A DNA stretch of 64,000 bases from a phage. The notes below the pieces were generated by a model, which was not told the DNA's origin, did not search any database, and saw only the letters and a program-made list of their open reading frames with translations. The stretch lies in the sequence record PX880100.1. One strand, written 5' to 3'. The translations under genes and the position numbers were made by a program. This document shows positions 35,621 to 64,000 of this stretch, piece after piece; the first letter of the stretch is position 1; every line of letters starts with the position of its first letter.

Positions 35621-35626
35621 AATTCT

Positions 35627-35922: not shown

Positions 35923-36108
35923 ATGTCCAAGTTTCAAGAACTCAAGCAAGAGCTAGAAGAATGTGCCTGCCCTGAGTGTAGGGGAATTGGTGAAAGTTCT
36001 GATGCAGAAGCAGGAGATACTTTTTGCAATATCTGGGTTTGCCCAAATTGCAATGGTACAGGTATTAATCCTAACTGTGGTATTTCTCTAGATATTGAAA
36101 GAGGGTAA
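35923..36108 (+). CDS. small zinc-ribbon-like protein (61 aa)
   Basis: Track ORF; CxxC...CxxC cysteine pairs (CACPECRG, CPNCNG); AAGGAG RBS. Confidence 0.5.
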   Translation: MSKFQELKQELEECACPECRGIGESSDAEAGDTFCNIWVCPNCNGTGINPNCGISLDIERG

Positions 36109-36209
36109 TATCTGTGAAACTAAAAGATTATTATATTGGTTGGTTTGTGGGACTAGTAGTAGGATTTTCACTAGGCTATAATATGTATCAACTAATAAAC
36201 TGATTACAC

Positions 36210-36286
36210 GGGGGTGTAATCGAATTGGCATAGGTACTGGACTTAAAATTCAGGTTTTGTGGGTTCGAATCCCACCACCCCTACCA
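36210..36286 (+). tRNA. tRNA with UAA anticodon (Leu-type anticodon, short variable arm)
   Basis: Acceptor GGGGGTG/CACCCCT, anticodon arm CTGGA-CTTAAAA-TTCAG, T-arm GTGGG-TTCGAAT-CCCAC, encoded CCA; D-arm not cleanly resolved. Confidence 0.5.
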
Positions 36287-36301
36287 AATTAAGGAAATAA
36301 G

Positions 36302-36469
36302 ATGTATAGACCTCCACCTCCGCCAACACGTCGTTCTAGAGAAGTTATCCTCATGGAATTGACTAAAAACTTCAAGGCAACTCTTGAAGATAGAGATTTA
36401 GGCACGGATGAAGACATTGATTTTATTTGTAGACTATTAAAGATGAAACTGGAGAAACAACATGGCTAA
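36302..36469 (+). CDS. hypothetical small protein (55 aa, below track cutoff)
   Basis: ATG at 36302 with AAGGAAATAAG RBS right after the tRNA; proline-rich N-terminus; overlaps the next ORF start. Confidence 0.5.
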   Translation: MYRPPPPPTRRSREVILMELTKNFKATLEDRDLGTDEDIDFICRLLKMKLEKQHG

Positions 36470-36668
36470 TCCTGAAATTACCGCACAACGTTTCATGCTT
36501 AAAGGCATGATTGCTGAAGCAGGTATGACTCAAGAGGTTGCAGACTTTCATAAGCAAATTCTTGATATTATAACTCTAGCTAAAGAGACTGGAGAAAAAG
36601 AGCACGCAGCAGCAATTATGGCTATATCTCTTATTAGTCTAGACTTGGCTGAAGAATCTGGAGTTTAG
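36462..36668 (+). CDS. hypothetical protein (68 aa)
   Basis: Track ORF. Confidence 0.5.
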   Translation: MANPEITAQRFMLKGMIAEAGMTQEVADFHKQILDIITLAKETGEKEHAAAIMAISLISLDLAEESGV

Positions 36669-36698
36669 CTCCTCCAAATAGAATTTTTAAAAATGTAC

Positions 36699-36728
36699 TT
36701 GCCTTTTGCTTTAAATTTCTGATATAAT
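36699..36728 (+). promoter_or_regulatory. early promoter
   Basis: TTGCCT, 18-bp spacer, TATAAT, then AGTTATATAAATTGATGAAGGAG; approximate. Confidence 0.55.
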
Positions 36729-36758
36729 AGTTATATAAATTGATGAAGGAGTTAACTA

Positions 36759-37034
36759 ATGCAAAATCGTGTTATAGCAACTGGTATTGAAAGTGCAATC
36801 TGTAAATCCTGGGAAGGCTGGGAAGGTGAGATTGAATGGCTTTATTTCTATGATGTAGAACTTCTGCCGGAAGTTAAAGCTAAATGTGTTGAAGCTGGAA
36901 TGGCTCCAGATGCAAAAGCTGATATTGATATTTCAATGTCTGAACTTAAAGGCCGTGTAATTACTGTTAGTGATGAGGGTGAAGAAGTTTTCGAACTTCC
37001 ATTCTCCTTAACTGTCACTCCTAAGTTCGACTAA
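36759..37034 (+). CDS. hypothetical protein (91 aa)
   Basis: Track ORF downstream of promoter. Confidence 0.5.
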   Translation: MQNRVIATGIESAICKSWEGWEGEIEWLYFYDVELLPEVKAKCVEAGMAPDAKADIDISMSELKGRVITVSDEGEEVFELPFSLTVTPKFD

Positions 37035-37070
37035 CTAATACAGCACTGAGCAAGTTCTTTAAAATTTGAC

Positions 37071-37099
37071 TTGCTCAGTGCCTTAAAACTTGGTATAAT
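37071..37099 (+). promoter_or_regulatory. early promoter feeding a tRNA block
   Basis: TTGCTC, 17-bp spacer, TATAAT; followed by a 14-bp inverted-repeat leader hairpin and tRNAs; approximate. Confidence 0.5.
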
Positions 37100-37161
37100 A
37101 GTTATCTAATTTGGAAACATATTTAAAAGTGTTTAAACTAGTATTTGAATACTTTTAAATA

Positions 37162-37267
37162 TGTTGGATTAGTATCGTAGAGGTAGCGAAGCAGACTGTA
37201 AATCTGCCGACTCGGAAGGGTCTCGGGTGGTTCGACTCCATCATCCATCATCCATCATCCAACACCA
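37162..37267 (+). tRNA. tRNA-Tyr-like (anticodon GUA), class II, atypically long; boundaries uncertain
   Basis: Perfect anticodon arm GCAGA-CTGTAAA-TCTGC, D-stem TCG/CGA, T-arm GGTGG-TTCGACT-CCATC; 3' region carries ATCCATC-ATCCATC-ATCCAAC then ACCA; GTTGGAT pairs with the last copy. Confidence 0.5.
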
Positions 37268-37274
37268 AATTTAA

Positions 37275-37351
37275 GTCCTGTTAGACAAACTGGTAAAGTC
37301 ACTACCCTTTCAAGGTAGGATTTGCGGGTTCGATCCCCGCACAGGACGCCA
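37275..37351 (+). tRNA. tRNA-Glu (anticodon UUC)
   Basis: Acceptor GTCCTGT/ACAGGAC, anticodon arm CTACC-CTTTCAA-GGTAG, T-arm GCGGG-TTCGATC-CCCGC, encoded CCA. Confidence 0.8.
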
Positions 37352-37360
37352 ATTTCTGCA

Positions 37361-37436
37361 TTCCTAGAGTGTTACTGGACAGCATGTCGGTCTCCAAAAT
37401 CGTACGGTCTAGGTTCGAGTCCTAGTAGGTTTGCCA
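37361..37436 (+). tRNA. tRNA-Trp-like (anticodon CCA), acceptor pairing unresolved
   Basis: Anticodon arm TCGGT-CTCCAAA-ATCGT and T-arm CTAGG-TTCGAGT-CCTAG with encoded CCA; spacing to neighbouring tRNAs fits, but 5' acceptor strand could not be paired by eye. Confidence 0.4.
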
Positions 37437-37442
37437 AAATTT

Positions 37443-37517
37443 GCACCTTTAGCTGAGATGGATTAGCGCTTGCCTGAAGAGCTTGAGAGGTTCGTTCGAT
37501 ACGAACAGGGTGCACCA
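37443..37517 (+). tRNA. tRNA-Phe-like (anticodon GAA)
   Basis: Acceptor GCACCTT/AGGGTGC, D-arm GCTG..TAGC, T-arm GTTCG-TTCGATA-CGAAC, encoded CCA; anticodon loop CTGAAGA but stem has two U-U mismatches. Confidence 0.55.
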
Positions 37518-37519
37518 AA

Positions 37520-37807
37520 TTGAGGGGGCTGCTGATGCATCCTGAAAACTTCTTTATTTACTGCGCTGATAAGTCGCTGAAACGTAGAATTAACAAAGTC
37601 TATCATTATCGTGCTAGTCAACAGCCTTATGTATATGCTTTTGACGGTGATCACATTCCATTAGAACAATTATCTTGTGATTACATGATATTGAAGAACT
37701 TTGACGAGACAAAGATCTCAAGCGTTCATAATCGACAGAATCCCTTAACGTGGAAATATAAGAAGAAAAAGAAAGGCATCAAATTCTTAAAAAATGTAGT
37801 TGCTTAG
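37520..37807 (+). CDS. hypothetical protein (95 aa)
   Basis: Track ORF starting 3 nt after the tRNA; TTG start. Confidence 0.45.
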   Translation: MRGLLMHPENFFIYCADKSLKRRINKVYHYRASQQPYVYAFDGDHIPLEQLSCDYMILKNFDETKISSVHNRQNPLTWKYKKKKKGIKFLKNVVA

Positions 37808-37828
37808 TTTCCAAAAGTTCTGTATAAT
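37800..37828 (+). promoter_or_regulatory. PN25-type early promoter
   Basis: TTGCTT, 17-bp spacer, TATAAT, then AATTACATAAATTGAACTGGAG; approximate. Confidence 0.55.
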
Positions 37829-37857
37829 AATTACATAAATTGAACTGGAGAAGCAAC

Positions 37858-38082
37858 ATGACAGAACAAGAATTGAATGAACGTAAGCTGGTAATGCTCC
37901 GCTTACTAAACATTTTCTCTGGTATGGATGGGGGTATTGACTTTGTTCATCTACGTTCTTTTGTAGAAGAAGCAGAAGGTGAATCTATCACTAAAATCCT
38001 TAAACATATGGGTTTACTATTAGATGCTGCTGGTGTAGCAACGGAATATAACCTCGAAGATCTACCGGAGCGTATTAAATGA
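37858..38082 (+). CDS. hypothetical protein (75 aa)
   Basis: ATG at 37858 with GGAG RBS; track lists an extended frame from 37840. Confidence 0.5.
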   Translation: MTEQELNERKLVMLRLLNIFSGMDGGIDFVHLRSFVEEAEGESITKILKHMGLLLDAAGVATEYNLEDLPERIK

Positions 38083-38267
38083 AGAAGCCAAAAGCTAAAT
38101 TAGTTAAGTTCGACTGTTGTGACACAGAAATCTTATTCACTAAGTTTGGTGAATTTAAGATGTGTGAATGTGGAACATGTGGTTATGATCATGGTGATGG
38201 ATATTATTGCAGGACTCTTGGACCAGCAAATCTAATCCACTTTTCATGGCCGGAAGATAAAGAATAA
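38079..38267 (+). CDS. small zinc-ribbon-like protein (62 aa)
   Basis: Track ORF; cysteine clusters FDCCDTE and CECGTCGYDHGDGYYC; 4-nt overlap with upstream gene. Confidence 0.5.
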   Translation: MKKPKAKLVKFDCCDTEILFTKFGEFKMCECGTCGYDHGDGYYCRTLGPANLIHFSWPEDKE

Positions 38268-38269
38268 TT

Positions 38270-38344
38270 GCATCCTTGTCCGAGTGGCTTAGGTGACGGT
38301 CTGCAAAATCGTCTAGGTTGGTTCAATTCCAGCAGGGTGCTCCA
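38270..38344 (+). tRNA. tRNA-Cys (anticodon GCA)
   Basis: Acceptor GCATCCT/AGGGTGC, anticodon arm ACGGT-CTGCAAA-ATCGT, T-arm GTTGG-TTCAATT-CCAGC, encoded CCA. Confidence 0.7.
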
Positions 38345-38350
38345 AATTCA

Positions 38351-38433
38351 GGGTCGTTAGCCAAGCGGTTTGGCGGTGGACTGTTAATCCATGTCGAAAG
38401 ACAACGTAGGTTCGAATCCTACACGGCCCGCCA
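38351..38433 (+). tRNA. tRNA-Asn (anticodon GUU) with an enlarged (~13-nt) variable region
   Basis: Acceptor GGGTCGT/ACGGCCC, D-arm GCCA..TGGC, anticodon arm GTGGA-CTGTTAA-TCCAT, T-arm GTAGG-TTCGAAT-CCTAC, encoded CCA. Confidence 0.65.
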
Positions 38434-38535
38434 AATTCTGTGTAGAGTTAAGTAAACCGGTAGCCAACCAGCTATCATTGCTGACATCGAATTCAGCCAC
38501 AGATACCATTTTCATTAATAACTGAGGAAACAAGC

Positions 38536-38721
38536 ATGTCCAAGAATGTAATTGCGCAGCTAGAAGTTCATCGTGATAGCACTATCAACAATATTGAAGT
38601 TGAGAAGAAATACATCGAAGAACTTAAACATGATATACTAGTAAGTCTCAACCGTCTTAATGTACGAAAAGAGTTTCTTAAAGAACTTAATGCAGCTATT
38701 GAAAAACTCAAAGCTGAGTAA
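38536..38721 (+). CDS. hypothetical protein (61 aa)
   Basis: Track ORF with GAGGAAAC RBS. Confidence 0.5.
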   Translation: MSKNVIAQLEVHRDSTINNIEVEKKYIEELKHDILVSLNRLNVRKEFLKELNAAIEKLKAE

Positions 38722-38730
38722 ATGAATTAT

Positions 38731-38807
38731 GCGACCGGGGCTGGCTTGGTAATGGTACTCCCCTGTCACGGGAGGGAATGTGGGTTCAAATCCCATCGGT
38801 CGCGCCA
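38731..38807 (+). tRNA. tRNA-Asp (anticodon GUC)
   Basis: Acceptor GCGACCG/CGGTCGC, anticodon arm CTCCC-CTGTCAC-GGGAG, T-arm GTGGG-TTCAAAT-CCCAT, encoded CCA. Confidence 0.8.
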
Positions 38808-38824
38808 AATAAGGTAGGTTAGCT

Positions 38825-38983
38825 ATGGAACGTAGAGAGTTTACTCCAGAAGAGATAGAGCAGATAAAAGAATCTGCTACGAAAAATGCTAGAATATCTC
38901 TGTCACTAGAAGGTATCATTATTAGTGATGTAAACTTTGAAAAAATCAAAGCCATAGCTGATGAACTGGAAAAAGTAATTTAA
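38825..38983 (+). CDS. hypothetical small protein (52 aa, below track cutoff)
   Basis: ATG at 38825 with AAGGTAGG RBS between two tRNAs; acidic helical peptide. Confidence 0.45.
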   Translation: MERREFTPEEIEQIKESATKNARISLSLEGIIISDVNFEKIKAIADELEKVI

Positions 38984-38984
38984 T

Positions 38985-39060
38985 ACATCCATAGCTCAAT
39001 GGTTAGAGCTACCGCCTCTTAAGCGGAGGGTTCTAGGTTCAAGTCCTAGTGGGTGTACCA
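38985..39060 (+). tRNA. tRNA-Lys (anticodon CUU)
   Basis: Acceptor ACATCCA/TGGGTGT, D-arm GCTC..GAGC, anticodon arm CCGC-CTCTTAA-GCGG, T-arm CTAGG-TTCAAGT-CCTAG, encoded CCA. Confidence 0.65.
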
Positions 39061-39086
39061 AACTAAACTAGCACGAGAAATATACT

Positions 39087-39434
39087 ATGCGTAATGCTAA
39101 AGAAGAGTTGTTACTTGCCTTAAAAAATACTAATTCTGAAGTTAAGTGTATTAAAATAGAATTCGGGTATTATGGGGACAAAAAAGTTTGGGTATTACCT
39201 CTGGGGTATACAGAAGAAGATATTGGGGATTTTCTTAATAACCTAGACTTTGAGTATGATTCTGGTTATGGTGGACAACTACTTTATGGTAATGTATGGT
39301 TTGCCGATGGAACCTGGCTAGAACGTGGGGAATATGATGGAGCTGAGTGGTGGGAATACAAGGCTACTCCAGCAATTCCAGAGGAATGCCGAACAATTAA
39401 TGGTGAAGTAGATAATACTTTAAGGTTAAACTAA
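39087..39434 (+). CDS. hypothetical protein (115 aa)
   Basis: Track ORF. Confidence 0.5.
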   Translation: MRNAKEELLLALKNTNSEVKCIKIEFGYYGDKKVWVLPLGYTEEDIGDFLNNLDFEYDSGYGGQLLYGNVWFADGTWLERGEYDGAEWWEYKATPAIPEECRTINGEVDNTLRLN

Positions 39435-39438
39435 TAAA

Positions 39439-39538
39439 ATTTCAGTGCAGAACACGGAGCTAGCAATTCGGAAGTGCTGACTCATGATAAGCTGCCTATG
39501 TACTTGCAAAGCGGTCGTGTCCAAGACTCGGACTCTTG
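39439..39538 (+). ncRNA. structured ORF-free element closed by a ~10-bp long-range stem
   Basis: TTCAGTGCAG at the 5' end pairs with CTTGCACTGAA at the 3' end, enclosing internal hairpins (GTCC-AAGACTC-GGAC); no ORF. Confidence 0.35.
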
Positions 39539-39556
39539 CACTGAAAACAATCAAAC

Positions 39557-39684
39557 ATTCTAGCGTGGTTGATGGGGAAACCAGCTTGGCTAGGGCAGAA
39601 GCTCGTTCGATTCGAGTGAAAGAATGGTTCTCGTAAGTCCGCACAAGTGATAATAGGTTCGAGTCCTGTCTAGAATGACACTAT
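39557..39684 (+). ncRNA. tRNA-like element of atypical length (~128 nt)
   Basis: ATTCTAG...CTAGAAT acceptor-like pairing, D-arm-like GGTT-GATGGGGA-AACC, two T-arm-like motifs; too long for a canonical tRNA. Confidence 0.3.
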
Positions 39685-39826
39685 AAAGTTTACTTATTAT
39701 GTAGGTTCCGATAGATCGGCGGGTCTATTCTGGCATTTAAGAGAGGTCTCGCAAACTTCTTTGTCAGCCGTGGGGTTGGTAGCCTCCAGGTGGCCTACAC
39801 AATAAGTAAATTTATTAAAAATTCAT

Positions 39827-39855
39827 TTGCTATTTCTCTTAATTATCTGTATAAT
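39827..39855 (+). promoter_or_regulatory. PN25-type early promoter
   Basis: TTGCTA, 17-bp spacer, TATAAT, then ATATTTTATAAAGTGAAGAGAAGG; approximate. Confidence 0.55.
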
Positions 39856-39887
39856 ATATTTTATAAAGTGAAGAGAAGGAAAGCAAA

Positions 39888-40046
39888 ATGAAACACAAGA
39901 TAGCTCAAGTTTTTATGGCATTATGGTGTATGCCAATAGCTATAACAGCATTTAATCTAGATACTTTTACTATAGAAGAAAAATGTATCGGATTAGTTAG
40001 TGGCTTTAGTATGCTTGGCTTATCTTTGTTGTGGTTGAAGAAATAA
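39888..40046 (+). CDS. hypothetical small membrane peptide (52 aa, below track cutoff)
   Basis: ATG at 39888 with GAAGGAAAG RBS after the promoter; hydrophobic sequence; stops 4 nt before tRNA-Pro. Confidence 0.5.
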   Translation: MKHKIAQVFMALWCMPIAITAFNLDTFTIEEKCIGLVSGFSMLGLSLLWLKK

Positions 40047-40050
40047 TATT

Positions 40051-40128
40051 CTCCGTGTAGCTCAGTTTGGCCAGAGCGTTTCGTTTGGGGCGATAGGGTC
40101 GGGGGTTCAAATCCTCCCACGGAGACCA
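40051..40128 (+). tRNA. tRNA-Pro (anticodon UGG)
   Basis: Acceptor CTCCGTG/CACGGAG, D-arm GCTC..GAGC, anticodon loop TTTGGGG (stem with one U-U), T-arm GGGGG-TTCAAAT-CCTCC, encoded CCA. Confidence 0.7.
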
Positions 40129-40134
40129 AACAAT

Positions 40135-40212
40135 TGCGGGTTAGATCTCTGGTAGAGATCGCTAGTCTCATAAGCTAGAAAGAGGTAGGTTCGATTCCTG
40201 CACCCGCTTCCA
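40135..40212 (+). tRNA. tRNA with CAU anticodon (Met-type; T-T mismatch at pair 1-72)
   Basis: Acceptor TGCGGGT/ACCCGCT, D-arm GATC..GATC, anticodon arm CTAGT-CTCATAA-GCTAG, T-arm GTAGG-TTCGATT-CCTGC, encoded CCA. Confidence 0.6.
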
Positions 40213-40232
40213 TTTTAATAGAGGATTTCGAA

Positions 40233-40400
40233 ATGAAAGTATTTCGATTAGTAGTAAGTGACAAACGCTTAGGTAAGAATACATCAAAATCCTTACTTGC
40301 TCATTATGGTAGAAATTGGGATGAAGTAATGGCAGAGTTTAGTACTAATCACTCTTACTTGAAAGTTCACTCTATTAAAGAAGTATACAATGGTTACTAA
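40233..40400 (+). CDS. hypothetical small protein (55 aa, below track cutoff)
   Basis: ATG at 40233 with GAGGA RBS between tRNAs. Confidence 0.45.
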   Translation: MKVFRLVVSDKRLGKNTSKSLLAHYGRNWDEVMAEFSTNHSYLKVHSIKEVYNGY

Positions 40401-40401
40401 T

Positions 40402-40480
40402 AGATCGCTAGCTCAATAGGTTTAGTAGCATCCGACTTTTAATCGGAAGGTTCTGGGTTCAAGTCCCAGGCGATCTACCA
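40402..40480 (+). tRNA. tRNA-Lys (anticodon UUU)
   Basis: Acceptor AGATCGC/GCGATCT, anticodon arm TCCGA-CTTTTAA-TCGGA, T-arm CTGGG-TTCAAGT-CCCAG, encoded CCA. Confidence 0.8.
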
Positions 40481-40484
40481 ATTT

Positions 40485-40558
40485 GCTCGGTTAGTTTAAT
40501 GGGAGAACCCCGTCTTTACATGGCGGTTGAGATAGTTCGATTCTATCACCGGGTACCA
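40485..40558 (+). tRNA. tRNA-Val (anticodon UAC)
   Basis: Acceptor GCTCGGT/ACCGGGT, anticodon arm CCGTC-TTTACAT-GGCGG, T-arm GATAG-TTCGATT-CTATC, encoded CCA. Confidence 0.8.
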
Positions 40559-40577
40559 ATTAACTCAAAATAAGGAA

Positions 40578-40937
40578 TTGCAAATGCAATTATCAAGCAA
40601 GATTCAAGGTTATTTCGGTCATGTGACAATGGAGTTCGCTATCTCTAAAGGTTGGGACTTCGAACAAGATTTAGCTGAGTTCTACAAAGATATTGATCTG
40701 AACGTACCGTACATGGGACTTTCTACTGGTCAGGAGATCACAGAAGCCGATGTATTCAAGGCAAGTCAAGGTGAGGTAACACCTAGTTTTGCCGAGTTCT
40801 GGTTAGGCATTACGTTAAAAGAAGATGCACCAGATAGTGGTGTACTAATGTCTAGTATGCACTCTGGAAGTTCCGATTACCTTTTCATTAGCGATGTTAA
40901 GGAAATACAAGAAGTCTGCAAAAATGTACTTGCTTGA
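40578..40937 (+). CDS. hypothetical protein (119 aa)
   Basis: Track ORF (TTG start; in-frame ATG at 40584) with AAGGAATTG RBS. Confidence 0.5.
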   Translation: MQMQLSSKIQGYFGHVTMEFAISKGWDFEQDLAEFYKDIDLNVPYMGLSTGQEITEADVFKASQGEVTPSFAEFWLGITLKEDAPDSGVLMSSMHSGSSDYLFISDVKEIQEVCKNVLA

Positions 40938-40957
40938 TGCTTAATTTCTTGTTATAA
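40929..40957 (+). promoter_or_regulatory. PN25-type early promoter feeding an ORF-free leader and tRNAs
   Basis: TTGCTT, 17-bp spacer, TATAAT, then ATTTATATAAATTGATGAGGAG; approximate. Confidence 0.55.
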
Positions 40958-41195
40958 TATTTATATAAATTGATGAGGAGAAATCCTCATCATAGTTCAC
41001 TAAGGTATTAGCTCGACCTAGGACTGGCTGCCAAAAAGCACGATCCCTACGATTCGGGAGAAGTTCTAGATTGGTCCACTAGATTCAGCGGCAACTGAAT
41101 AGTGTATTGGGTTTGCGAGATGACGTAGTTCCTTCCGCTCTAAGCGAAGGTGCTGTAGTTACGCCGAGCTAATAGCCTTAGTAAACTAAAGAATT

Positions 41196-41274
41196 TGGGG
41201 AATGGGTCTGCATGGAGTGGACACCTCGCTTGCACCGAGGACATCAGAACGGTTCGATTCCGTTATTCTCCACC
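41196..41274 (+). tRNA. tRNA-Ala (anticodon UGC)
   Basis: Acceptor GGGGAAT/ATTCTCC, D-arm GTCT..GGAC, anticodon arm CCTCG-CTTGCAC-CGAGG, T-arm AACGG-TTCGATT-CCGTT, encoded CCA. Confidence 0.8.
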
Positions 41275-41279
41275 AAATA

Positions 41280-41356
41280 CGCGTGATTGATGGAATTGGC
41301 ATACATACCGTCCTTAGAAGTCGGGTTTTGAGGGTTCGAATCCCTTGTCACGCACC
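41280..41356 (+). tRNA. tRNA with UAG anticodon (Leu-type anticodon, short variable arm)
   Basis: Acceptor GCGTGAT/GTCACGC, anticodon arm CCGTC-CTTAGAA-GTCGG (one mismatch), T-arm GAGGG-TTCGAAT-CCCTT, encoded CCA. Confidence 0.5.
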
Positions 41357-41468
41357 AAATTTGATGGTCAGAGTAAATTAAACCTACTATCTCGGTTGAG
41401 CTGTTTTAATGGGTTCGAATCCCAGCGAGGCGTAACTGCCTGGTGTGATAGAGGCATCATCTTATTAT

Positions 41469-41559
41469 TGGAAGAGCAAATCGAATTGGCGACGAAAACC
41501 GCTTGGAAAGTGGCTGACTGGTAAAACGGCTTGAGAGTTCAAATCTCTCCTCTTCCGCC
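41469..41559 (+). tRNA. tRNA-Ser (anticodon GGA), class II
   Basis: Acceptor GGAAGAG/CTCTTCC, anticodon arm ACCGC-TTGGAAA-GTGGC, long variable arm, T-arm GAGAG-TTCAAAT-CTCTC, encoded CCA. Confidence 0.7.
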
Positions 41560-41571
41560 AAACAATTTATA

Positions 41572-41666
41572 TGGTAGGTCAATCCAATGGCTGGCGTGGG
41601 ACTCCGACTTGAAATCGGTTGATCGTAGTGATACGGTGTAAGGGTTCGATCCCCTTACCTACCTCC
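41572..41666 (+). tRNA. tRNA-Ser (anticodon UGA), class II
   Basis: Acceptor GGTAGGT/ACCTACC, anticodon arm TCCGA-CTTGAAA-TCGGT, long variable arm, T-arm AAGGG-TTCGATC-CCCTT, encoded CCA. Confidence 0.7.
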
Positions 41667-42032
41667 AAATCTTGAAGTATGCCGGAATCGGTAGACGGGG
41701 CTGCCTAAAAGGTTTATAGGGAACATCCACTCCCTGCAACATACCCCATAAAGCGGCTGAGATAAATGGTCTATCTCGTGAAGGTTCAAGTCCTTCTGCT
41801 TCTTGATACATCAATGGCTCAAAGTGTAACGGCGCTATTTGATGCGCTTAGTAAGACTTCCCCGACATGCGTTCGGGAGTAAGCTGCTAAGGCTAGAGTA
41901 GAAGAGTTTCTGAGAGCCGCCACAATTGAAGATTCGTACTCGTCTTGAGCTGCGTGCAATAGGAGATAACTTGATTAGTATTCTAGAACATGCTAATTGA
42001 GGAAGGTTTCGCTAACCCTGCGAGTTTTCAAT

Positions 42033-42109
42033 TGTGGCTATATCATAATTGGTTAATGATCCTGATTGTGAATCAGGCCTATGTGGATTCGAATTCCACT
42101 AGCCACCCC
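42033..42109 (+). tRNA. tRNA-His (anticodon GUG)
   Basis: Acceptor GTGGCTA/TAGCCAC, D-arm TCAT..ATGA, anticodon arm CCTGA-TTGTGAA-TCAGG, T-arm GTGGA-TTCGAAT-TCCAC, encoded CCA. Confidence 0.85.
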
Positions 42110-42135
42110 AAATTAACTTAAATAGGAAATAAAAT

Positions 42136-42330
42136 ATGGCTGATTTCTGCAAACAATGCTCCATTGATATGTGGGGCAGAGATACTGGTGATCTTTCTGG
42201 TTTGATTACAGAAGCTGAAGTTAAAGAAGGCTACGGTGCTGTTGTGATTTGCGAGGGATGCGGAGTTATTCGAGTAGATCATGAAGGCAAACGTTTGGAA
42301 GAATCTGAGCCAACAACAATTTTTCCGTAG
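42136..42330 (+). CDS. small zinc-ribbon-like protein (64 aa)
   Basis: Track ORF; CKQCS...CEGCG cysteine pairs; AGGAAATAAA RBS. Confidence 0.5.
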   Translation: MADFCKQCSIDMWGRDTGDLSGLITEAEVKEGYGAVVICEGCGVIRVDHEGKRLEESEPTTIFP

Positions 42331-42342
42331 AATAAAAATTAT

Positions 42343-42418
42343 TGGGATGTAGATCAATTGGCAGATCGTCGGCCTCTGACTCCGAAGGCTCCACGTTCGA
42401 TCCGTGGCATCCCAGCCA
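42343..42418 (+). tRNA. tRNA-Gln (anticodon CUG)
   Basis: Acceptor TGGGATG/CATCCCA, D-arm GATC..GATC, anticodon loop CTCTGAC, T-arm CCACG-TTCGATC-CGTGG, encoded CCA. Confidence 0.7.
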
Positions 42419-42424
42419 AATAAT

Positions 42425-42500
42425 TGGAGAGTAGTGTAACGGTTAGCACAACGGCCTTTGACTCCGTTAATGGTAGGTTCGATTCCTCCTTCTCCAGCCA
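42425..42500 (+). tRNA. tRNA-Gln (anticodon UUG)
   Basis: Acceptor TGGAGAG/TTCTCCA, D-arm GTGT..GCAC, anticodon loop CTTTGAC, T-arm GTAGG-TTCGATT-CCTCC, encoded CCA. Confidence 0.7.
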
Positions 42501-42508
42501 AATAATAA

Positions 42509-42584
42509 GCGGTTAAGCACACGGGTTGTGTCGCAGGCCTTCCAAGCCTCGCTGAGTAGGGTTCGATTCCCTCTAGCCGCTCCA
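42509..42584 (+). tRNA. tRNA-Gly (anticodon UCC)
   Basis: Acceptor GCGGTTA/TAGCCGC, anticodon arm AGGC-CTTCCAA-GCCT, T-loop TTCGATT, encoded CCA. Confidence 0.65.
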
Positions 42585-42600
42585 ACTTTAAGGGGACATT

Positions 42601-42822
42601 ATGCACGTTTTTGAGTTTCGTAATAAAAGTACCGATAAACGAGTTATTGTTATCGGGGAAACATACCGAGCATACGAACAAACTGACGGCTCTGTTATCC
42701 TGAATGACGAAAAAGGAGGTTTTAGCTTTTATCCCAAAGAAACTTACGAAGAATTTCGTACAAAGTTTCTTCTACCAGACTGGCTAGAAGTAGCGCAGCA
42801 ACGAGAACCCGAAGATGGCTGA
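42601..42822 (+). CDS. hypothetical protein (73 aa)
   Basis: Track ORF with AAGGGGAC RBS. Confidence 0.5.
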   Translation: MHVFEFRNKSTDKRVIVIGETYRAYEQTDGSVILNDEKGGFSFYPKETYEEFRTKFLLPDWLEVAQQREPEDG

Positions 42823-42979
42823 TAACCTAAAAGTCAAGATCGATAAACAAAAGAAACGTGTCGAAGTAGAGATTGGTGAAGAACGTGTAGCCTTCACCTT
42901 TGAATTTCTACAACAAATGGCAATGACAGTTATGACTGATAAGTCTCCTGTTATTGAAAAAGAAATCCCGTTGAAATAA
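42815..42979 (+). CDS. hypothetical small protein (54 aa, below track cutoff)
   Basis: ATG at 42815 overlapping the upstream stop; ends 10 nt before tRNA-Thr. Confidence 0.4.
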   Translation: MADNLKVKIDKQKKRVEVEIGEERVAFTFEFLQQMAMTVMTDKSPVIEKEIPLK

Positions 42980-42988
42980 CGGGCTATC

Positions 42989-43063
42989 GCTCCTAAAGCA
43001 TTGTTGGCGATGCAGTTGCCTTGTAAGCATCTGAACCGGGTTCGATTCCTGGTGGGAGCACCA
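42989..43063 (+). tRNA. tRNA-Thr (anticodon UGU)
   Basis: Acceptor GCTCCTA/TGGGAGC, D-arm GCAT..ATGC, anticodon loop CTTGTAA, T-arm CCGGG-TTCGATT-CCTGG, encoded CCA. Confidence 0.75.
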
Positions 43064-43078
43064 AATTTAAAAATTCAT

Positions 43079-43107
43079 TTGCTTTCTCTCTTATTTCTTG
43101 TTATAAT
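43079..43107 (+). promoter_or_regulatory. PN25-type early promoter
   Basis: TTGCTT, 17-bp spacer, TATAAT, then ATTTATATAAATTAATGAGAGGG; approximate. Confidence 0.55.
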
Positions 43108-43137
43108 ATTTATATAAATTAATGAGAGGGAAGCCAA

Positions 43138-43431
43138 ATGAAACGTTATCTTTCTGTTGTGTTCCAAACTGGTGGTCAGCGCTATACTTACGAATTTCCT
43201 GGCTCTTGGAAAGTCAAAGAAGGTGATCAAGTAGTTGTATTAACACCGCGTGACGGGTATAAGGTAGTAACGGTTAAGCAAGTATTTTCAAAAGACTATG
43301 AACCGTCTAAGTCTATTAACTATAAGATGATTCATGGTGTAGTTCGTCAAGTACCACGAGCGGAAGTCGAAATCAAAGTAGATAAAGATGATAAACTTAA
43401 ATATACCTCTTGCATAGACGAGTTGCTATAA
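43138..43431 (+). CDS. hypothetical protein (97 aa)
   Basis: Track ORF downstream of promoter. Confidence 0.5.
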   Translation: MKRYLSVVFQTGGQRYTYEFPGSWKVKEGDQVVVLTPRDGYKVVTVKQVFSKDYEPSKSINYKMIHGVVRQVPRAEVEIKVDKDDKLKYTSCIDELL

Positions 43432-43637
43432 TGAGGATTACTTTTACAGAAAAGATTATGAGTAATGGTGTTATGATCATTACCGCATGGGACAGTAATC
43501 AGTGGTGTAGTGTTTCAGGTATTAAGCCTGAAGAACAAACACTAGAAAATATCTCAAAGATTAAGCGAAGAATGGCAGAACGTGCACGACTTCCAGGTGC
43601 ACCTAGAAATGGCAAACGTTCTGCTGTGAAATGTTAA
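43431..43637 (+). CDS. hypothetical protein (68 aa)
   Basis: ATG at 43431 overlapping the upstream TAA (TAATG); track lists a longer frame from 43410. Confidence 0.45.
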   Translation: MRITFTEKIMSNGVMIITAWDSNQWCSVSGIKPEEQTLENISKIKRRMAERARLPGAPRNGKRSAVKC

Positions 43638-43638
43638 T

Positions 43639-43715
43639 GCTTCGGTAGCTTAGCGATCTAAAGCACTCGGCTGATAACCGAGAGATCGGGGGTTTAAATC
43701 CCTCCCGGAGTACCA
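43639..43715 (+). tRNA. tRNA-Ile (anticodon GAU)
   Basis: Acceptor GCTTCGG/CCGGAGT, D-arm GCTT..AAGC, anticodon arm CTCGG-CTGATAA-CCGAG, T-arm GGGGG-TTTAAAT-CCCTC, encoded CCA. Confidence 0.8.
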
Positions 43716-43811
43716 AATTTAGGAATTAAGACTATGCGTCCAGGAAAGTTTAGAAAAGCTAATTGGTCTAAAGAGTATAAAGAATACTTACTTAGTCTAG
43801 TAAAACATAAC

Positions 43812-43887
43812 AGTTAGTTGGCAGAGTGGTTATGCACCTCCTTCATACGGAGCGACTACAGTGGTTCAAATCCACTACTAACTACCA
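43812..43887 (+). tRNA. tRNA-Met (anticodon CAU)
   Basis: Acceptor AGTTAGT/ACTAACT, anticodon loop TTCATAC, T-arm AGTGG-TTCAAAT-CCACT, encoded CCA. Confidence 0.7.
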
Positions 43888-60890: not shown

Positions 60891-61193
60891 AACTCTATGA
60901 AATAACATAGAATAAAGAGATCCACCCGGATACGGATAGTGGATGGGAAACTTCTATTTCCCCCGTAGCTTGTCGGAGGGCTAGGGAAATCTTAAGAAGT
61001 TTTGTACCATCTCACGCAATTCGTATCCCAGGGGTGGAGCATCTCTTCCAATCTTTGGGGGATCTTATATTTAAATTAAAGGTAAAACTTTTGACCACAT
61101 AATTTACATTCAAGATGATACACTTGTTGCCACCGCTCTTCCTAGGATGGCACGACACTTTCTAGTAGACTCCTAAGTTTCTAGGAAAATCCT

Positions 61194-61930
61194 GTCGTAT
61201 TTGCACATATTATAGGGCAGTTTCTCTCCTGCTATAAATATCCTAGGCCGGTTTTCCTACACAGGGCGGTTATTGGGAGGGCGGTTATTTCTAGAAGACA
61301 TTTTTCCAAAACACATTTCCAGAATTCATTGTCGGATTCGCACATTGTGTTTCTAGAAATTTATGGTCGGATTTGCACAATCGCCTAAGTTTTTAGGAAC
61401 ATATAATCTCCTGAAAATGGCAGCATTATTTCGGGCCGAAGGCCCATGATTGCCTGAGTTTTTAGAGCCACAAGAATTTTCGCTTGTCAAGCTATTTTGC
61501 CCCATTTAGCTAATAAAATTTTACCTTTTCTGCACTTATCTCAAATTAACCCAAATCTTCTCAACTCTTCCCCAAAATCCCCGCAAATCAGGTGCTCCGC
61601 ACCAAACATGCACCTCTCTCACAGTTCTCTCAAATTTTTCTCGCTCTCTCAACTTCTCCCCGAACTCATACAATCACACACCCTCTAATCGAAGTCACAA
61701 AAATCTTGTCGGATTCGCACAAATAAACCCATGTCGGATCTGCACATACTCTAGCTAATTCCACAGGATTGATGCGCAGCATCGGATTGCTGGAGTTTTT
61801 GGGAAAATTCATTGTCGGATTTGCACACTATAAAAATTTTTCGGGTCGGATTTGCACACTACCAAAAATTGTCGGATTTGCACATACACGCCCACGCGTA
61901 ATCCATGGGGGCAAATGTCGGATTTGCACA
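61194..61930. repeat. nine dispersed copies of a 14-bp motif GTCGGAT(T/C)(T/C)GCACA
   Basis: Copies at about 61194, 61331, 61366, 61708, 61733, 61814, 61845, 61871, 61917, all in the same orientation with irregular spacing (25-342 bp). Confidence 0.7.
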
Positions 61931-61934
61931 AAAG

Positions 61935-61952
61935 CGCAGGGCAATTGCCCTG
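61935..61952. repeat. perfect 18-bp palindrome GCAGGGCAATTGCCCTGC
   Basis: Read directly; could form a hairpin or cruciform. Confidence 0.7.
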
Positions 61953-61972
61953 CTCGCCTGAATGCGAATAAA

Positions 61973-62150
61973 AATGAGAATGATTCTCATTTAAAAAGCG
62001 GAATGCGAATGATAATGATTCGTATTTAAGAATGGAAATGAGAATTATTCAGGAAGTGAAACGATTCTCATTTAAAAAGTGGAATGATTATTAGTTACAT
62101 AGTAAAACGCGAATGATAATGATTCGTATTTAAGAATGGAAGAGAGAAAC
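61973..62150. repeat. interleaved direct repeats and palindromes
   Basis: Unit GATTCTCATTTAAAAAG(C/T)GGAATG occurs twice and unit GCGAATGATAATGATTCGTATTTAAGAATGGAA twice; palindromes AATGAGAATGATTCTCATT and CGAATGATAATGATTCG inside. Confidence 0.65.
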
Positions 62151-62163
62151 ACTATTATTTAAG

Positions 62164-62172
62164 TTATCCACA
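62164..62172 (+). promoter_or_regulatory. DnaA box (TTATCCACA)
   Basis: Exact 9-mer consensus; second copy 73 bp downstream. Confidence 0.55.
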
Positions 62173-62236
62173 GACTTATTAACAGCACGATTTGACTTGA
62201 CAGAATCCTAGCCATTTTGAGGCGTTATTAACAGAC

Positions 62237-62245
62237 TTATCCACA
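62237..62245 (+). promoter_or_regulatory. DnaA box (TTATCCACA)
   Basis: Exact 9-mer consensus; flanked by permuted CAGACTTAT / TTAACAG motifs shared with the first box. Confidence 0.55.
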
Positions 62246-62263
62246 GCTTATCCTACTGTATAA

Positions 62264-62283
62264 ATATACAGTATTCCTACGCA
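62264..62283. promoter_or_regulatory. LexA (SOS) box-like palindrome TACTGTATAAATATACAGTA
   Basis: CTGT-N8-ACAG with AT-rich spacer and palindromic flanks, matching the E. coli LexA-box consensus pattern. Confidence 0.45.
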
Positions 62284-62467
62284 GTGAATAATTCTAATAT
62301 AGCGTTAAAACGTCCTAGATCGCATTCTAACGCGTTTAATTTTGTTGGGGATACTAAAACAAGGGCAAAATTGGAGGAGGCTTAGAAATTAGTTAGCTCG
62401 CTAACGATCACACAAGGCGACACGTAACACCCTAACCATTAGCAGGCTAACCATCGCGGGCGCGGTC

Positions 62468-62488
62468 AAATGAGAATCATTCTCATTT
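62468..62488. repeat. palindrome AAATGAGAATCATTCTCATTT
   Basis: Read directly; related to the AATGAGAATGATTCTCATT palindrome ~500 bp upstream. Confidence 0.65.
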
Positions 62489-62639
62489 GAGAATTGGGGG
62501 CACTTCCCGATAGTTGCGCCCCGTGATTATTACAGTAGTGGGCAACCGTTACGTTTTGCCCACTCCCGCCACTCATCTTGATACCTAGACTTGCGACGGC
62601 GTACTAAAAACCGTTTATACCAGTGATTAAACCATTGTT

Positions 62640-62873
62640 TCATAAATCCTCCTCCGGTAGTCGATGCGTGATTTTTTCCTCCTCCCCGTAGGAATCCGCC
62701 AAATGCTGATAATAACCATCGTGATCATAAATCACTTTATCATACTCGCCACGCTCGACCGCTTGCCGATTCTCCGGCGTATCGGGCACATAAAAAACAT
62801 CAACCATTGTACTAGTTTTGGTCACAATAATTTTATTGCTCATAATAACTCCTAGTAAATATATTTTTGCCAA
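62640..62873 (-). CDS. hypothetical protein (77 aa)
   Basis: Track ORF; higher GC than the rest of the window; GGAGG-type RBS upstream on the reverse strand. Confidence 0.5.
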   Translation of the reverse strand: MAKIYLLGVIMSNKIIVTKTSTMVDVFYVPDTPENRQAVERGEYDKVIYDHDGYYQHLADSYGEEEKITHRLPEEDL

Positions 62874-62943
62874 TAGTGGCGAACGTTATCGCCACCAGCG
62901 GAATCATTAGCTGCCTCAACATTACCAACGAAAATATATAATT

Positions 62944-63327
62944 TCATTGCGCCACCTTTCGAAACGCTGTTTCAATACTATCAGCGGTGGATTGAATATA
63001 CGCGCCTTTCATTATCAGGCGCTCGGTGCACACCTTGCGGAAAATATTAATAAAATCATCTTCATTTTCTGCAATTAACGCTTCACCCATAACCTGAACA
63101 TCACAAGATGCAAAGGTCAAAAATTGAAACGCTAGTTCACGGGCAACGACCGCATTGATTTTATAATGCGCCTTGCCCTCATAAATATTAATAACGCCCT
63201 TATAAGCGGGTGAAAGCTGATTCAAATAGTTTGCTAGTAATGCCGGACGGCAATTAGCAACAAAACGATTGCCTTCATAAATAACCATTTTATAACACCC
63301 CACGAAACGCAGCGTAAAAGGTGGCAA
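62944..63327 (-). CDS. hypothetical protein (127 aa; alternative start at 63288)
   Basis: Track ORF; the ATG at 63288 lies 1 nt after the upstream gene stop, suggesting coupling. Confidence 0.5.
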   Translation of the reverse strand: MPPFTLRFVGCYKMVIYEGNRFVANCRPALLANYLNQLSPAYKGVINIYEGKAHYKINAVVARELAFQFLTFASCDVQVMGEALIAENEDDFINIFRKVCTERLIMKGAYIQSTADSIETAFRKVAQ

Positions 63328-63502
63328 AGTGTTTAACCGTTTCAGCGATCACGTTGCCGCGCTTGTCGAATTTTTTCTCAGTAACACGAAAGGCATTTTT
63401 ATTACGTGCTACATATTCGATTTTACAGTCTTCACGCTCGAACGTGTTAACGTCCACCAGCTTAAAGCCTTTCGAACGTGCAAGGGAAACGTTACGAATC
63501 AT
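63290..63502 (-). CDS. hypothetical protein (70 aa)
   Basis: Track ORF with reverse-strand GGAGA RBS. Confidence 0.5.
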   Translation of the reverse strand: MIRNVSLARSKGFKLVDVNTFEREDCKIEYVARNKNAFRVTEKKFDKRGNVIAETVKHFATFYAAFRGVL

Positions 63503-63519
63503 TTTTATTCTCCTTTACC

Positions 63520-63652
63520 AGTCATGCAGCCCAGCAGATAAGAAAACGCAGCAATTACCGCGCCAATAATAACGGCGTGAACACCGAAAGCTATTGCAAA
63601 CAACGATAAAATAGCGCCCAAGATACCCGCCAGAATAGCTCGAAAAATAATC
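63520..63652 (-). CDS. hypothetical small membrane peptide (about 44 aa, below track cutoff)
   Basis: Reverse-strand ATG with AGGAGA RBS; product MIIFRAILAGILGAILSLFAIAFGVHAVIIGAVIAAF is one TM helix; coordinates approximate. Confidence 0.4.
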
Positions 63653-63700
63653 ATTTTTATTCTCCTAGTCAGTGGGGGATATAATATCCCCCGTTACTAA

Positions 63701-63931
63701 TTACATTAAAACAATTTTTGCAGCTTGTTTTTTAGTACAGTGTTCCGCTTTCAGCGTGTCCAGCAAAAAGCCCGCCGTTTGCTGATCGATTTTATCGGCG
63801 TTGTATAGTTCTTGGATGGTGTTATAAGTTTTAGCAATGCCGAACTCCTGCACCATTTCATGAATGATTACGCGATTAGACACCCAACCTTGAGCGGTGA
63901 ACAGATGACTAGCAGAAGAGTATGCAACCAT
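63701..63931 (-). CDS. hypothetical protein (76 aa)
   Basis: Track ORF; followed on the reverse strand by the GGGGGATAT-A-ATATCCCCC hairpin. Confidence 0.5.
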   Translation of the reverse strand: MVAYSSASHLFTAQGWVSNRVIIHEMVQEFGIAKTYNTIQELYNADKIDQQTAGFLLDTLKAEHCTKKQAAKIVLM

Positions 63932-64000
63932 TTTAAGCCTCCAAATTTTTGGGAAATTTTCAATCCACCGTTTTGGTGTAAAGGCATTATAACAAAAAAG

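Follow-up and report, generated by a model that had tools for sequence, protein, structure and literature searches.

The closest described counterpart of the locus analysed here is the pre-early region of phage T5, in which genes T5.012–T5.017 are located in the left terminal repeat (NC_005859, 7624–9157). According to Annor et al. (2026), more than 75% of Tequintavirus genomes carry genes 012–015 and 017. The T5.015 protein of T5 is toxic, binds Ung and nicks AP sites, and it is no longer toxic in an ung mutant (Mahata et al. 2021, PMC8201957). The toxicity of 015 was reproduced by Annor 2026, where T5 Gp013 was also found to be toxic, with a lysis-like phenotype, while 012, 014 and 017 were non-toxic (PMC8201957; Annor 2026). 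T5 tolerates loss of the hegG-017 block in E. coli F, as observed in a multi-deletion mutant with smaller plaques (Annor et al. 2026). Furthermore, T5-like phages have been described as carrying mosaic small-gene cassettes (Davison 2020, bioRxiv 10.1101/866236). According to the literature, the pre-early block is expressed by host RNA polymerase during first-step transfer in T5 and in its relative Bas33, in which pre-early transcripts and proteins have been detected. The class I genes of T7 (0.4, 0.7) and the immediate-early small genes of T4 are likewise small, mostly dispensable and often toxic, and are transcribed by the host polymerase from first-entering DNA. They share no known homology with the T5 block, which, unlike them, lies in a terminal repeat and is set apart by two-step injection.

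The window analysed here is the whole 64,000-nucleotide stretch of phage sequence record PX880100.1. Its last 1.4 kb is very probably the right-hand arm of the pre-early genes, the first-step-transfer block, in a T5-like phage (Tequintavirus). Sequence comparison identified this segment as a reverse-oriented homologue of the T5 left terminal repeat at ~7.55–9.3 kb, and counterparts of T5.012, T5.013, T5.014, T5.015 and T5.017 were found in T5 order (Table 1). All genes of the block lie on the strand pointing to the injection-stop-signal repeats, which adjoin it; window 61055–62365 aligns with T5 9317–10661 at 87% identity (the T5 iss annotation covers 9140–10149). The earlier note had placed the cluster, by position, in the pre-early, terminal-repeat part of a T5-like genome, right where the homologue of T5.012–T5.017 is now located, immediately before these repeats. 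Relative to the injection stop signal, the genes keep the order and direction they have in T5; they are likewise tightly coupled, and a stem-loop occupies the matching intergenic position. The differences from T5 comprise the deletion of T5.016 (85 aa), which is also missing in most relatives, a 49-aa allele of 013 without the polar loop, a GGGGGATAT hairpin allele where T5 carries a GGGGCG allele, and a distal terminator without the T-run of T5.

Table 1. Features of the pre-early block and its borders, in order of decreasing window position
Feature	Position	Strand	Remarks
T-run of the terminator 3' of gene 011, cut by the window end	63986..64000	-	matching T5 hairpin is annotated as terminator 7534-7559
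Extended -10 promoter-like element TGTTATAAT	63994-63986	-	overlaps the gene-011 terminator T-run
Small 5'-leader hairpin CACC-AAAAC-GGTG	63966..63978	-	upstream of gene 012
Gene 012 homologue, 76 aa	63701..63931	-	84% amino-acid identity to full-length T5.012; phrog_5145 E=5e-50
Perfect hairpin GGGGGATAT-N-ATATCCCCC	63674..63692	.	between 012 and 013; without U-tract
Gene 013 homologue, 49-aa allele, small hydrophobic membrane peptide	63505..63654	-	63% amino-acid identity to T5.013 (59 aa), 10 residues deleted in the polar loop; phrog_5607 E=3e-29
Gene 014 homologue, 70 aa, basic, pI 10.0	63290..63502	-	100% amino-acid identity to T5.014; phrog_4227
Gene 015 homologue, 114 aa, predicted Ung-dependent nickase of abasic (AP) sites	62944..63288	-	94% amino-acid identity to full-length T5.015; phrog_4379 E=2e-64
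31-aa micro-ORF	62852..62947	-	start overlaps 015 stop (ATGA); 100% amino-acid identity to T5 8641-8733; phrog_22819
Gene 017 homologue, 67 aa, acidic, pI 4.6	62640..62843	-	91% amino-acid identity to T5.017; phrog_6973 E=7e-42
37-aa very basic micro-ORF, pI 11, candidate unannotated gene	62530..62643	-	start overlaps 017 stop (ATGA)
GC-rich hairpin GGGGCGC...GTGCCCC	62497..62522	-	at the T5 operon-terminator position; injection-stop-signal repeats start beyond

Homology and profile searches of the products, as proposed in that note, matched T5.012–T5.017 and T5-type PHROGs at E-values from 1e-27 to 1e-64, with no PHROGs match for the 37-aa ORF, and the homologues are confined to T5-like phages. 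None of the seven products gave a significant match in scans with Pfam, NCBIfam and PADLOC, and an Rfam scan of 61000–64000 at E<=1 gave no match. Block DNA was matched by 458 phage records, 180 of which covered at least 80% of the query; in relatives with annotated terminal repeats, the match falls inside the LTR, at two places. The window holds one copy of the block and ends at T5 position ~7553, so that repeat status and the operon promoter lie beyond direct view. Among T5-like phages the block is a mosaic of varying small-gene cassettes, with gains and losses at 014/015 and 015/017, and patchiness among relatives concerns individual cassettes only (016, inserts). Since the same genes occur in phage T5 and in hundreds of relatives, this T5.012–T5.017-type small-gene block is real yet ordinary, already known and not a foreign insertion. 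The present finding adds one more copy of it; because the block is on record for hundreds of Tequintavirus genomes and its genetics have been dissected in T5, that picture is unchanged.

The cluster had been described as visibly GC-richer than the rest of the window, with a composition suggesting horizontal acquisition. The first statement was not borne out as worded, and the second found no support. GC content of the cluster is 41.2%; the window averages 39.0% (sd 2.1 among windows of equal size), and 13% of those windows reach or exceed the value of the cluster. The difference at synonymous sites is real yet subtler: GC3 is 0.415 versus 0.321 ± 0.059, and the proposed codon-usage comparison, run against the other window genes, gave a chi-square of 157 versus 53 ± 19, a value reached by 0 of 2000 resamples. 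A compositionally foreign island, acquired by recent horizontal transfer from outside the T5-like lineage, would account for this significantly unlike codon usage, for the mosaic with cassettes inserted or lost at 014/015 and 015/017, and for the high divergence of T5 6209–9194, which shows little homology to Type 2 and 3 T5-like phages (Davison 2020, bioRxiv 10.1101/866236). Such an origin is nevertheless highly improbable. Bulk GC lies only ~1 sd over the window mean, the family of each product is confined to T5-like phages, 458 records carry this DNA, most of the genes are reported from more than 75% of Tequintavirus genomes (Annor et al. 2026), and no flanking integrase, transposase or homing-endonuclease gene was found within the window. 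Composition-matched close homologues in unrelated phages or bacteria, or a block missing from most Markadamsvirinae, were looked for, and neither was found. The GC3 shift is also observed in the core pre-early genes of T5, namely A1 (0.44), A2 (0.45) and 007 (0.42), as well as in 002, with 0.27 in early genes 018–021. Within the T5 repeat, it is the rare, AT-rich genes hegG and 003 that deviate in composition (Annor 2026). Because A1, A2 and 007 share the shift, we infer that it marks a temporal class and not recent horizontal acquisition.

The cluster avoids AGA, GGA, GTA, ACA, CCA and ATA, most of which are codons read by phage tRNAs; 24 tRNA genes are located at 33.8–43.9 kb of the window. 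Of the relevant codons in the cluster, 16.3% are NNA codons cognate to phage U34 tRNAs, versus 31.5% elsewhere (Fisher p=1e-5), and in T5 001–011 the effect is weaker (27% vs 31.5%, p=0.01). The argument from timing to codon choice is a partial one: GGA is without a cognate among the 24 phage tRNAs found, ATA has one only if one of two CAT-anticodon tRNAs is of the Ile2 type, and the host-adaptation index is average for 015 (0.42) and 017 (0.38) compared with the window mean of 0.40. The shift might alternatively stem from a distinct regime of mutation or recombination in the terminal repeats (for example repeat-to-repeat conversion, or exchange between co-infecting phages) and not from tRNA timing, as it spans much of the repeat and the adaptation of 015 and 017 to highly expressed E. 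coli genes does not exceed that of the average phage gene. We consider this unlikely. Repeat position alone does not set composition, because T5 hegG and 003 have low GC3 (0.24 and 0.26) inside the same repeat, and most of the depleted codons are cognates of phage U34 tRNAs. Under the temporal-class reading, the bias of pre-early genes relative to the codons read by phage tRNAs would tie two-step injection to the carriage of phage tRNAs in a simple way that can be tested.

All five of the small leftward ORFs listed in the earlier note are present (Table 1, genes 012–015 and 017), and some of their lengths required correction. The listed lengths of 77 and 127 aa count from the most distant TTG start, and the ATG-started forms of 67 and 114 aa equal the lengths of T5.017 and T5.015 exactly; the ORF given as ~44 aa is 49 aa long. 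The tight coupling was confirmed, with spacers of 2 nt (013/014) and 1 nt (014/015) and ATGA overlaps at 015/31-aa ORF and 017/37-aa ORF. Chance ORFs were rejected because variation among relatives is biased to the third codon position, with variable alignment columns by codon position of 14/9/51 for 012, 11/6/48 for 014 and 36/19/93 for 015.

The two micro-ORFs were compared among relatives in the same way. The 31-aa ORF is ATG-open in 10 distinct relatives, with variable columns of 9/8/16; its T5 counterpart is unannotated in NC_005859 and appears as 'ORF017' in AY692264. At this site the body of T5.016 is deleted, and the match to T5.016 spans residues 1–19 only. The 37-aa ORF shares 84% identity with T5 9154–9264, an unannotated stretch inside the 'iss' feature, is an annotated CDS in phage vB_EcoS_MM-1, and is ATG-open in 6 distinct relatives (variable columns 6/5/12). 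Beyond it, T5 carries a canonical terminator, GACGGGGATCAGCTCCCCGTTTTT, annotated at 9275–9296; the window version is without a clear T-run.

By sequence, the 114-aa product is a full-length member of the T5.015 Ung-dependent AP endonuclease family. T5.015 (locus tag T5.015 = AAS77062.1) bears the UniProt name 'DNA-(apurinic or apyrimidinic site) endonuclease', and precomputed Pfam PF26847 was observed on 17 of 17 homologues of 015. The window product shares this narrow family with the T5 nickase, and the biochemistry belongs to the T5 protein (PMC8201957). A PDB sequence search with 015 and 014 profiles reached a best E of ~1, and the AlphaFold2 model of 015, based on a 15-sequence alignment, was unusable (pLDDT 43). 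Like Gp015, the phage proteins PBS2 Ugi and phi29 p56 are small, appear early and bind the uracil-DNA glycosylase of the host. Both are DNA mimics that block Ung; Gp015 instead requires active Ung and uses its product, and no sequence similarity was found between Gp015 and Ugi or p56.

In public annotation, the name of this enzyme is attached to its neighbour. In RefSeq and PHROGs, the 'Ung-dependent endonuclease' label sits on the 70-aa T5.014 homologue. T5.014 is named 'ORF015' in the AY692264 numbering only, and the nickase label on 014 is probably an off-by-one error. Automatic annotation will label the 70-aa 014, probably wrongly, as the Ung-dependent nickase, and the error is apparently spreading (RefSeq, PHROGs, pharokka-derived records). 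Mahata et al. state no length for the cloned protein in their main text (PMC8201957). An exhaustive HMMER search with 014 returned just 3 further ~70-aa clusters (50% identity; 1.84 billion representatives); matches to long multi-stretch, probably repetitive, proteins were regarded as spurious.

The proposal that host-takeover genes reside here is supported by the experimental toxicity of two of the products, 013 and 015, in T5 (PMC8201957; bioRxiv 10.64898/2026.04.02.716235). The window 013 peptide is hydrophobic (GRAVY 1.8), and its residues 1–44 are continuously so, with G-V-H as the sole break; the T5 allele has two hydrophobic segments with a polar loop between them, and both alleles are common among relatives. 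The earlier description as a single-TM peptide is probably wrong, because a 44-residue stretch is too long for one span and the T5 allele is two-segmented. Toxicity of the window allele is extrapolated from the T5 protein, since the two differ considerably (63% identity, loop deleted). For 012, the AF2 model reached a pLDDT of 63, and a Foldseek search against the PDB gave no significant fold (best E=1.1), which leaves a helix-turn-helix assignment without support.

The perfect hairpin noted earlier between genes, GGGGGATAT-A-ATATCCCCC, was located between 012 and 013. It has perfect 9-bp arms, and a folding energy of -20.8 kcal/mol (z = -3.9) was obtained for its 71-nt context. Relatives carry other alleles at the same site (GGGGCG-7nt-CGCCCC, GGGGCGA-5nt-TCGCCCC, GGGGATA-3nt-TATCCCC and GGGGGATA-3nt-TATCCCCC), all of them perfect stems in which both arms have changed in a compensatory manner. 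A GC-rich stem-loop just past a stop codon resembles an intrinsic (Rho-independent) terminator, and this structure, perfect, directly behind the 012 stop codon and kept through compensatory alleles, could end a monocistronic 012 message as a terminator or attenuator. The U-tract that defines such terminators is, by contrast, missing here, and none of the relatives examined has it: no T/U run follows the stem on either strand in 18 of 18 distinct relatives. In the window the stem is followed by ACTGACTAGGAG, relatives are alike, and the terminator scan gave no call because there is no T-run. In addition, no separate promoter is evident for the downstream genes, and we regard a terminator here as quite unlikely.

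Combining these observations, the block DNA would enter first and be transcribed by unmodified host RNA polymerase, either by read-through from a promoter upstream of gene 011 or from the conserved extended -10 element at the window edge. A single tightly coupled message would then give seven small products (012, 013, 014, 015, the 31-aa ORF, 017 and the 37-aa ORF). As judged from the T5 proteins, Gp015 would bind host uracil-DNA glycosylase and nick the resulting abasic sites, arresting host replication and division, and Gp013, a putative small two-segment membrane peptide, would harm cell integrity when expressed; 012, 014 and 017 would be non-toxic accessory proteins. The conserved 012/013 stem-loop most likely acts as RNA, controlling the stability or dosage of the toxic genes that follow it, and raised GC3 and codon avoidance may reflect translation before the phage tRNA genes arrive with the second-step DNA. 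Taken jointly, a codon shift that is a temporal-class signature tuned to the host tRNA pool, two more coupled micropeptides (31 and 37 aa) omitted by the T5 annotation, and a U-less stem-loop dosing toxic 013–015 form a tentative reading, to which we give somewhat less than an even chance. The structure models of the products (pLDDT 43 for 015, 63 for 012) provided no structural support.

The block may also consist mainly of exchangeable counter-defence cassettes, in which the non-toxic products (of 012, 014, 017 and the micro-ORFs) would block particular immunity or repair systems and make a difference only where the host has such systems, a possibility also raised by Annor et al. This role would explain both the dispensability of hegG-017 in laboratory strains, as seen for the T5 mutant in E. 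coli F, and the turnover of cassettes. It also agrees with the mosaic gene content, with the position in first-entering DNA, and with the classical T5 pre-early phenotypes (restriction insensitivity, RecBCD and Ung inactivation) that are still without assigned genes. It is a possible but doubtful reading, as no sequence, profile or fold match to known anti-defence or defence proteins was obtained. It is compatible with, and not exclusive of, the main explanation of a coupled, host-transcribed pre-early block.

At the window edge, the extended -10 element is conserved, with TTTTTTGTTATAATGC in nearly all of 24 distinct relatives and GCTATAAT in one, and its promoter function is predicted. A promoter scan inside the cluster gave 5 promoter-like sites versus 4.4 ± 2.0 in shuffles, that is, no excess. 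The T5 reference annotation may miss this promoter-like element as well as the two conserved micro-ORFs. Upstream of gene 012, the site of the small 5'-leader hairpin carries one of two self-complementary alleles in relatives, CACCAAAACGGTG or ACCGTTTGAGGACGGT.

The small leftward genes at the right end of the window correspond to an already-known, widely conserved and experimentally studied operon, the pre-early genes T5.012-T5.017 of phage T5. A Megablast search with positions 61400-64000 matched 458 phage records, 180 of them with at least 80% query cover; nearly all were Tequintavirus and relatives with Escherichia or Salmonella as hosts, and the top matches were ~93% identical. Where terminal repeats are annotated, the matching DNA falls within the left repeat and each genome has two copies. 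Compared with the T5 reference, the products of 012, 013, 014, 015 and 017 were 84, 63, 100, 94 and 91% identical, respectively, in the T5 gene order. The body of T5.016 (~200 bp) is absent from the window; this gene is found in <15% of Demerecviridae genomes, while 012-015 and 017 occur in >75% of Tequintavirus genomes (Annor et al., bioRxiv 10.64898/2026.04.02.716235). Furthermore, window positions 61055-62365 align with T5 9317-10661, an interval that takes in the greater part of the injection stop signal as annotated in T5 (9140-10149). All products except that of the 37-aa ORF gave T5-type PHROG matches (E 1e-27 to 1e-64), and scans of the cluster products against Pfam, NCBIfam and PADLOC returned no match. 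The earlier note, based on sequence alone, had described a largely real feature, except for its GC claim, its ORF lengths and its call of a single-TM peptide; its guess of a pre-early position and host-takeover role was correct, given the T5.012-.017 homology and published function. The by-products are minor but checkable: a mislabelled nickase, a codon signature related to tRNA timing, two micro-ORFs and a promoter-like element.

The gene layout was established on the minus strand by reading 61500-64000 together with the ORF listing. Leftward small ORFs are present as had been noted, with lengths of 114 and 67 aa from ATG for 015 and 017 in place of those first stated. The tight coupling was confirmed: spacers of 2 nt (49-aa to 70-aa ORF) and 1 nt (70-aa to 114-aa ORF) are followed by ATGA overlaps at 62944-62947 and 62640-62643, which join the starts of the 31-aa and 37-aa ORFs to the stop codons of 015 and 017, and Shine-Dalgarno-like GGAG/AGGAG motifs lie inside the 3' ends of the preceding genes.

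Features of the leftward cluster and associated elements in the window
Feature	Coordinates	Strand	Remarks
Gene-011 terminator, part in window	63986-64000	-	
Extended -10 element, TGTTATAAT	63994-63986	-	
012 homologue	63931-63701	-	76 aa (ORF listing)
Hairpin between 012 and 013	63674-63692		GGGGGATAT-A-ATATCCCCC, perfect
013 homologue	63654-63505	-	49 aa (ORF listing)
014 homologue	63502-63290	-	70 aa (ORF listing)
015 homologue	63288-62944	-	114 aa from ATG; 127 aa from upstream TTG
Micro-ORF, 31 aa	62947-62852	-	ORF listing
017 homologue	62843-62640	-	67 aa from ATG; 77 aa from TTG
Micro-ORF, 37 aa	62643-62530	-	ORF listing
Injection-stop-signal region	61700-62490		87% identity to the T5 region
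24 tRNA genes	33839-43887	+	many with U34 anticodons

Coding capacity was assessed in 36 IMG/VR loci with a 015 homologue. Variable columns fell mainly at third codon positions in 012 (14/9/51), 014 (11/6/48) and 015 (36/19/93), and these genes are clearly coding. In all relatives carrying them, both micro-ORFs begin with ATG and remain uninterrupted, and a milder third-position excess was observed (9/8/16 for 31 aa; 6/5/12 for 37 aa), evidence that is suggestive of genes, short of conclusive. The 31-aa ORF is 100% identical to T5 frame 8641-8733, unannotated in the T5 RefSeq and listed as "ORF017" in the alternative record AY692264; the 37-aa ORF is 84% identical to T5 frame 9154-9264, also unannotated in RefSeq. 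Among the same loci the cluster is a mosaic, with two 013 alleles (49 and 59 aa), a variable segment between 015 and 017, and a 37-aa ORF found in only some relatives. Many relatives carry added small ORFs between 014 and 015, absent from the window and T5; this insert measures 120-245 bp, with a 40-aa CDS annotated in phage vB_EcoS_MM-1. Earlier work described T5 6209-9194 as a region of high divergence with numerous insertions and deletions (Davison, bioRxiv 10.1101/866236).

The toxicity assays proposed in the earlier note already exist in the literature. T5.002-.017 were cloned, and 008, 011 and 015 were toxic; 015 binds host Ung, which must be active, and nicks the abasic sites that Ung generates, leading to replication and division arrest (Mahata et al., PMC8201957). 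Annor et al., using NC_005859.1 numbering, reproduced 015 toxicity, showed that 013, with two predicted transmembrane segments, is toxic in a lysis-like manner, and reported 012, 014, 016 and 017 as non-toxic; a multi-deletion mutant lacking hegG through 017 was viable with smaller plaques. Infection by the relative Bas33, arrested after first-step transfer, yielded pre-early transcripts together with ten proteins of the pre-early class. Attempts to go further yielded little: the homologues found fall into few clusters (17, 8 and 38), every one T5-like; exhaustive HMMER searching from 014 brought in just three more, of ~70 aa; AlphaFold2 models were poor (pLDDT 43 for 015, 63 for 012); and no significant match to the 012 model came from Foldseek. 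Predicted pI values are 10.0 for 014 (strongly basic), 4.6 for 017 (acidic) and 11 for the 37-aa product (very basic).

The annotation of the Ung-dependent nickase is in conflict. In RefSeq NC_005859, phrog_4227 and many derived records, the 70-aa T5.014 family is labelled [quoted passage not shown]. T5.015 is the locus tag of a 114-aa protein (AAS77062.1) named "DNA-(apurinic or apyrimidinic site) endonuclease" in UniProt, and the precomputed Pfam family PF26847 is assigned to all its homologues. Only the "ORFnnn" scheme of AY692264 numbers the 70-aa protein 015, and both laboratories, working independently in T5.0xx / NC_005859.1 numbering, saw toxicity with 015 and none with 014. We therefore conclude that the 015 homologue is the predicted nickase gene of the window, and that the label on the 014 homologue is probably a propagating off-by-one error.

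The visible GC-richness described earlier is weak: the cluster region has 41.2% GC against a window mean of 39.0% (sd 2.1%, equal-sized windows), and 13% of such windows reach or exceed it. The codon-usage comparison that had been suggested nevertheless revealed a real compositional difference at synonymous sites. GC3 was 0.415 for the concatenated cluster vs 0.321 ± 0.059 for the rest of the window (73 ORF-proxy genes). The synonymous-codon chi-square was 157, where runs of other genes matched in size gave 53 ± 19, and 0 of 2000 resamples reached the cluster value; AGA/AGG, GGA, GTA, ACA, CCA and ATA codons are much rarer in the cluster. Horizontal acquisition, previously proposed from composition, is very unlikely to be the explanation, since raised GC3 is common to the T5 core pre-early genes (A1 0.44, A2 0.45, 007 0.42, 002 0.39; 012-017 0.41), against 0.27 in the first early genes 018-021. 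Within the terminal repeat, T5 hegG (5411-5929, GC3 0.24) and 003 (1371-1649, GC3 0.26) are better candidates for recent insertion, being AT-rich and reportedly rare among relatives, and are probably mobile.

The tRNA genes lie on second-step DNA. Within the cluster, 16.3% of the relevant codons were of the NNA type cognate to phage U34 tRNAs (AGA, TTA, CTA, GTA, GCA, TCA, ACA, CCA), against 31.5% in the rest of the window (Fisher p = 1e-5), with an intermediate 27% in T5 001-011 (p = 0.01). On a host-adaptation index for which 31 highly expressed E. coli genes served as reference, 015 and 017 were average, and 012, 014 and the 31-aa ORF ranked among the highest 4-7% of the window's genes. The codon shift may thus be a partial signature of temporal class, as translation would precede phage tRNAs in the cell. 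No paper stating such a signature for T5 was found in the literature.

The perfect hairpin noted between 012 and 013 is present, and the 71 nt around it fold with an energy of -20.8 kcal/mol (z = -3.9). It is one of several and not unique, as ~11 different perfect hairpins with stems of 9 bp or more were counted across the window (17 overlapping hits; shuffles gave 2.8 ± 1.8 hits). Among 18 distinct relatives, at least four stem-loop versions were observed (GGGGGATAT.., GGGGCG.., GGGGCGA.., GGGGATA..), each a perfect stem with both arms changed, which argues that the structure is selected. A role as intrinsic terminator is unlikely, as the defining T-run follows the stem on neither strand. The hairpin would most likely act as an RNA element, placed before the toxic genes, that affects stability or dosage.

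At its right end, the window stops within the gene-011 terminator, whose stem lies outside together with any -35 element. The T-run of this terminator overlaps the extended -10 element; the promoter-like sequence is conserved in nearly all of 24 distinct relatives and lacks annotation in T5. At the opposite end, T5 has a canonical terminator 3' of the 37-aa ORF; the GC hairpin found there in the window shows no clear T-run. The injection-stop-signal region beyond contains about six TGTCGGATTTGCACA-like repeat copies, perfect palindromes CAAATGAGAAT..ATTCTCATTTG at 61972-61992 and 62466-62490, and DnaA-box-like TTATCCACA motifs near 62167 and 62240.
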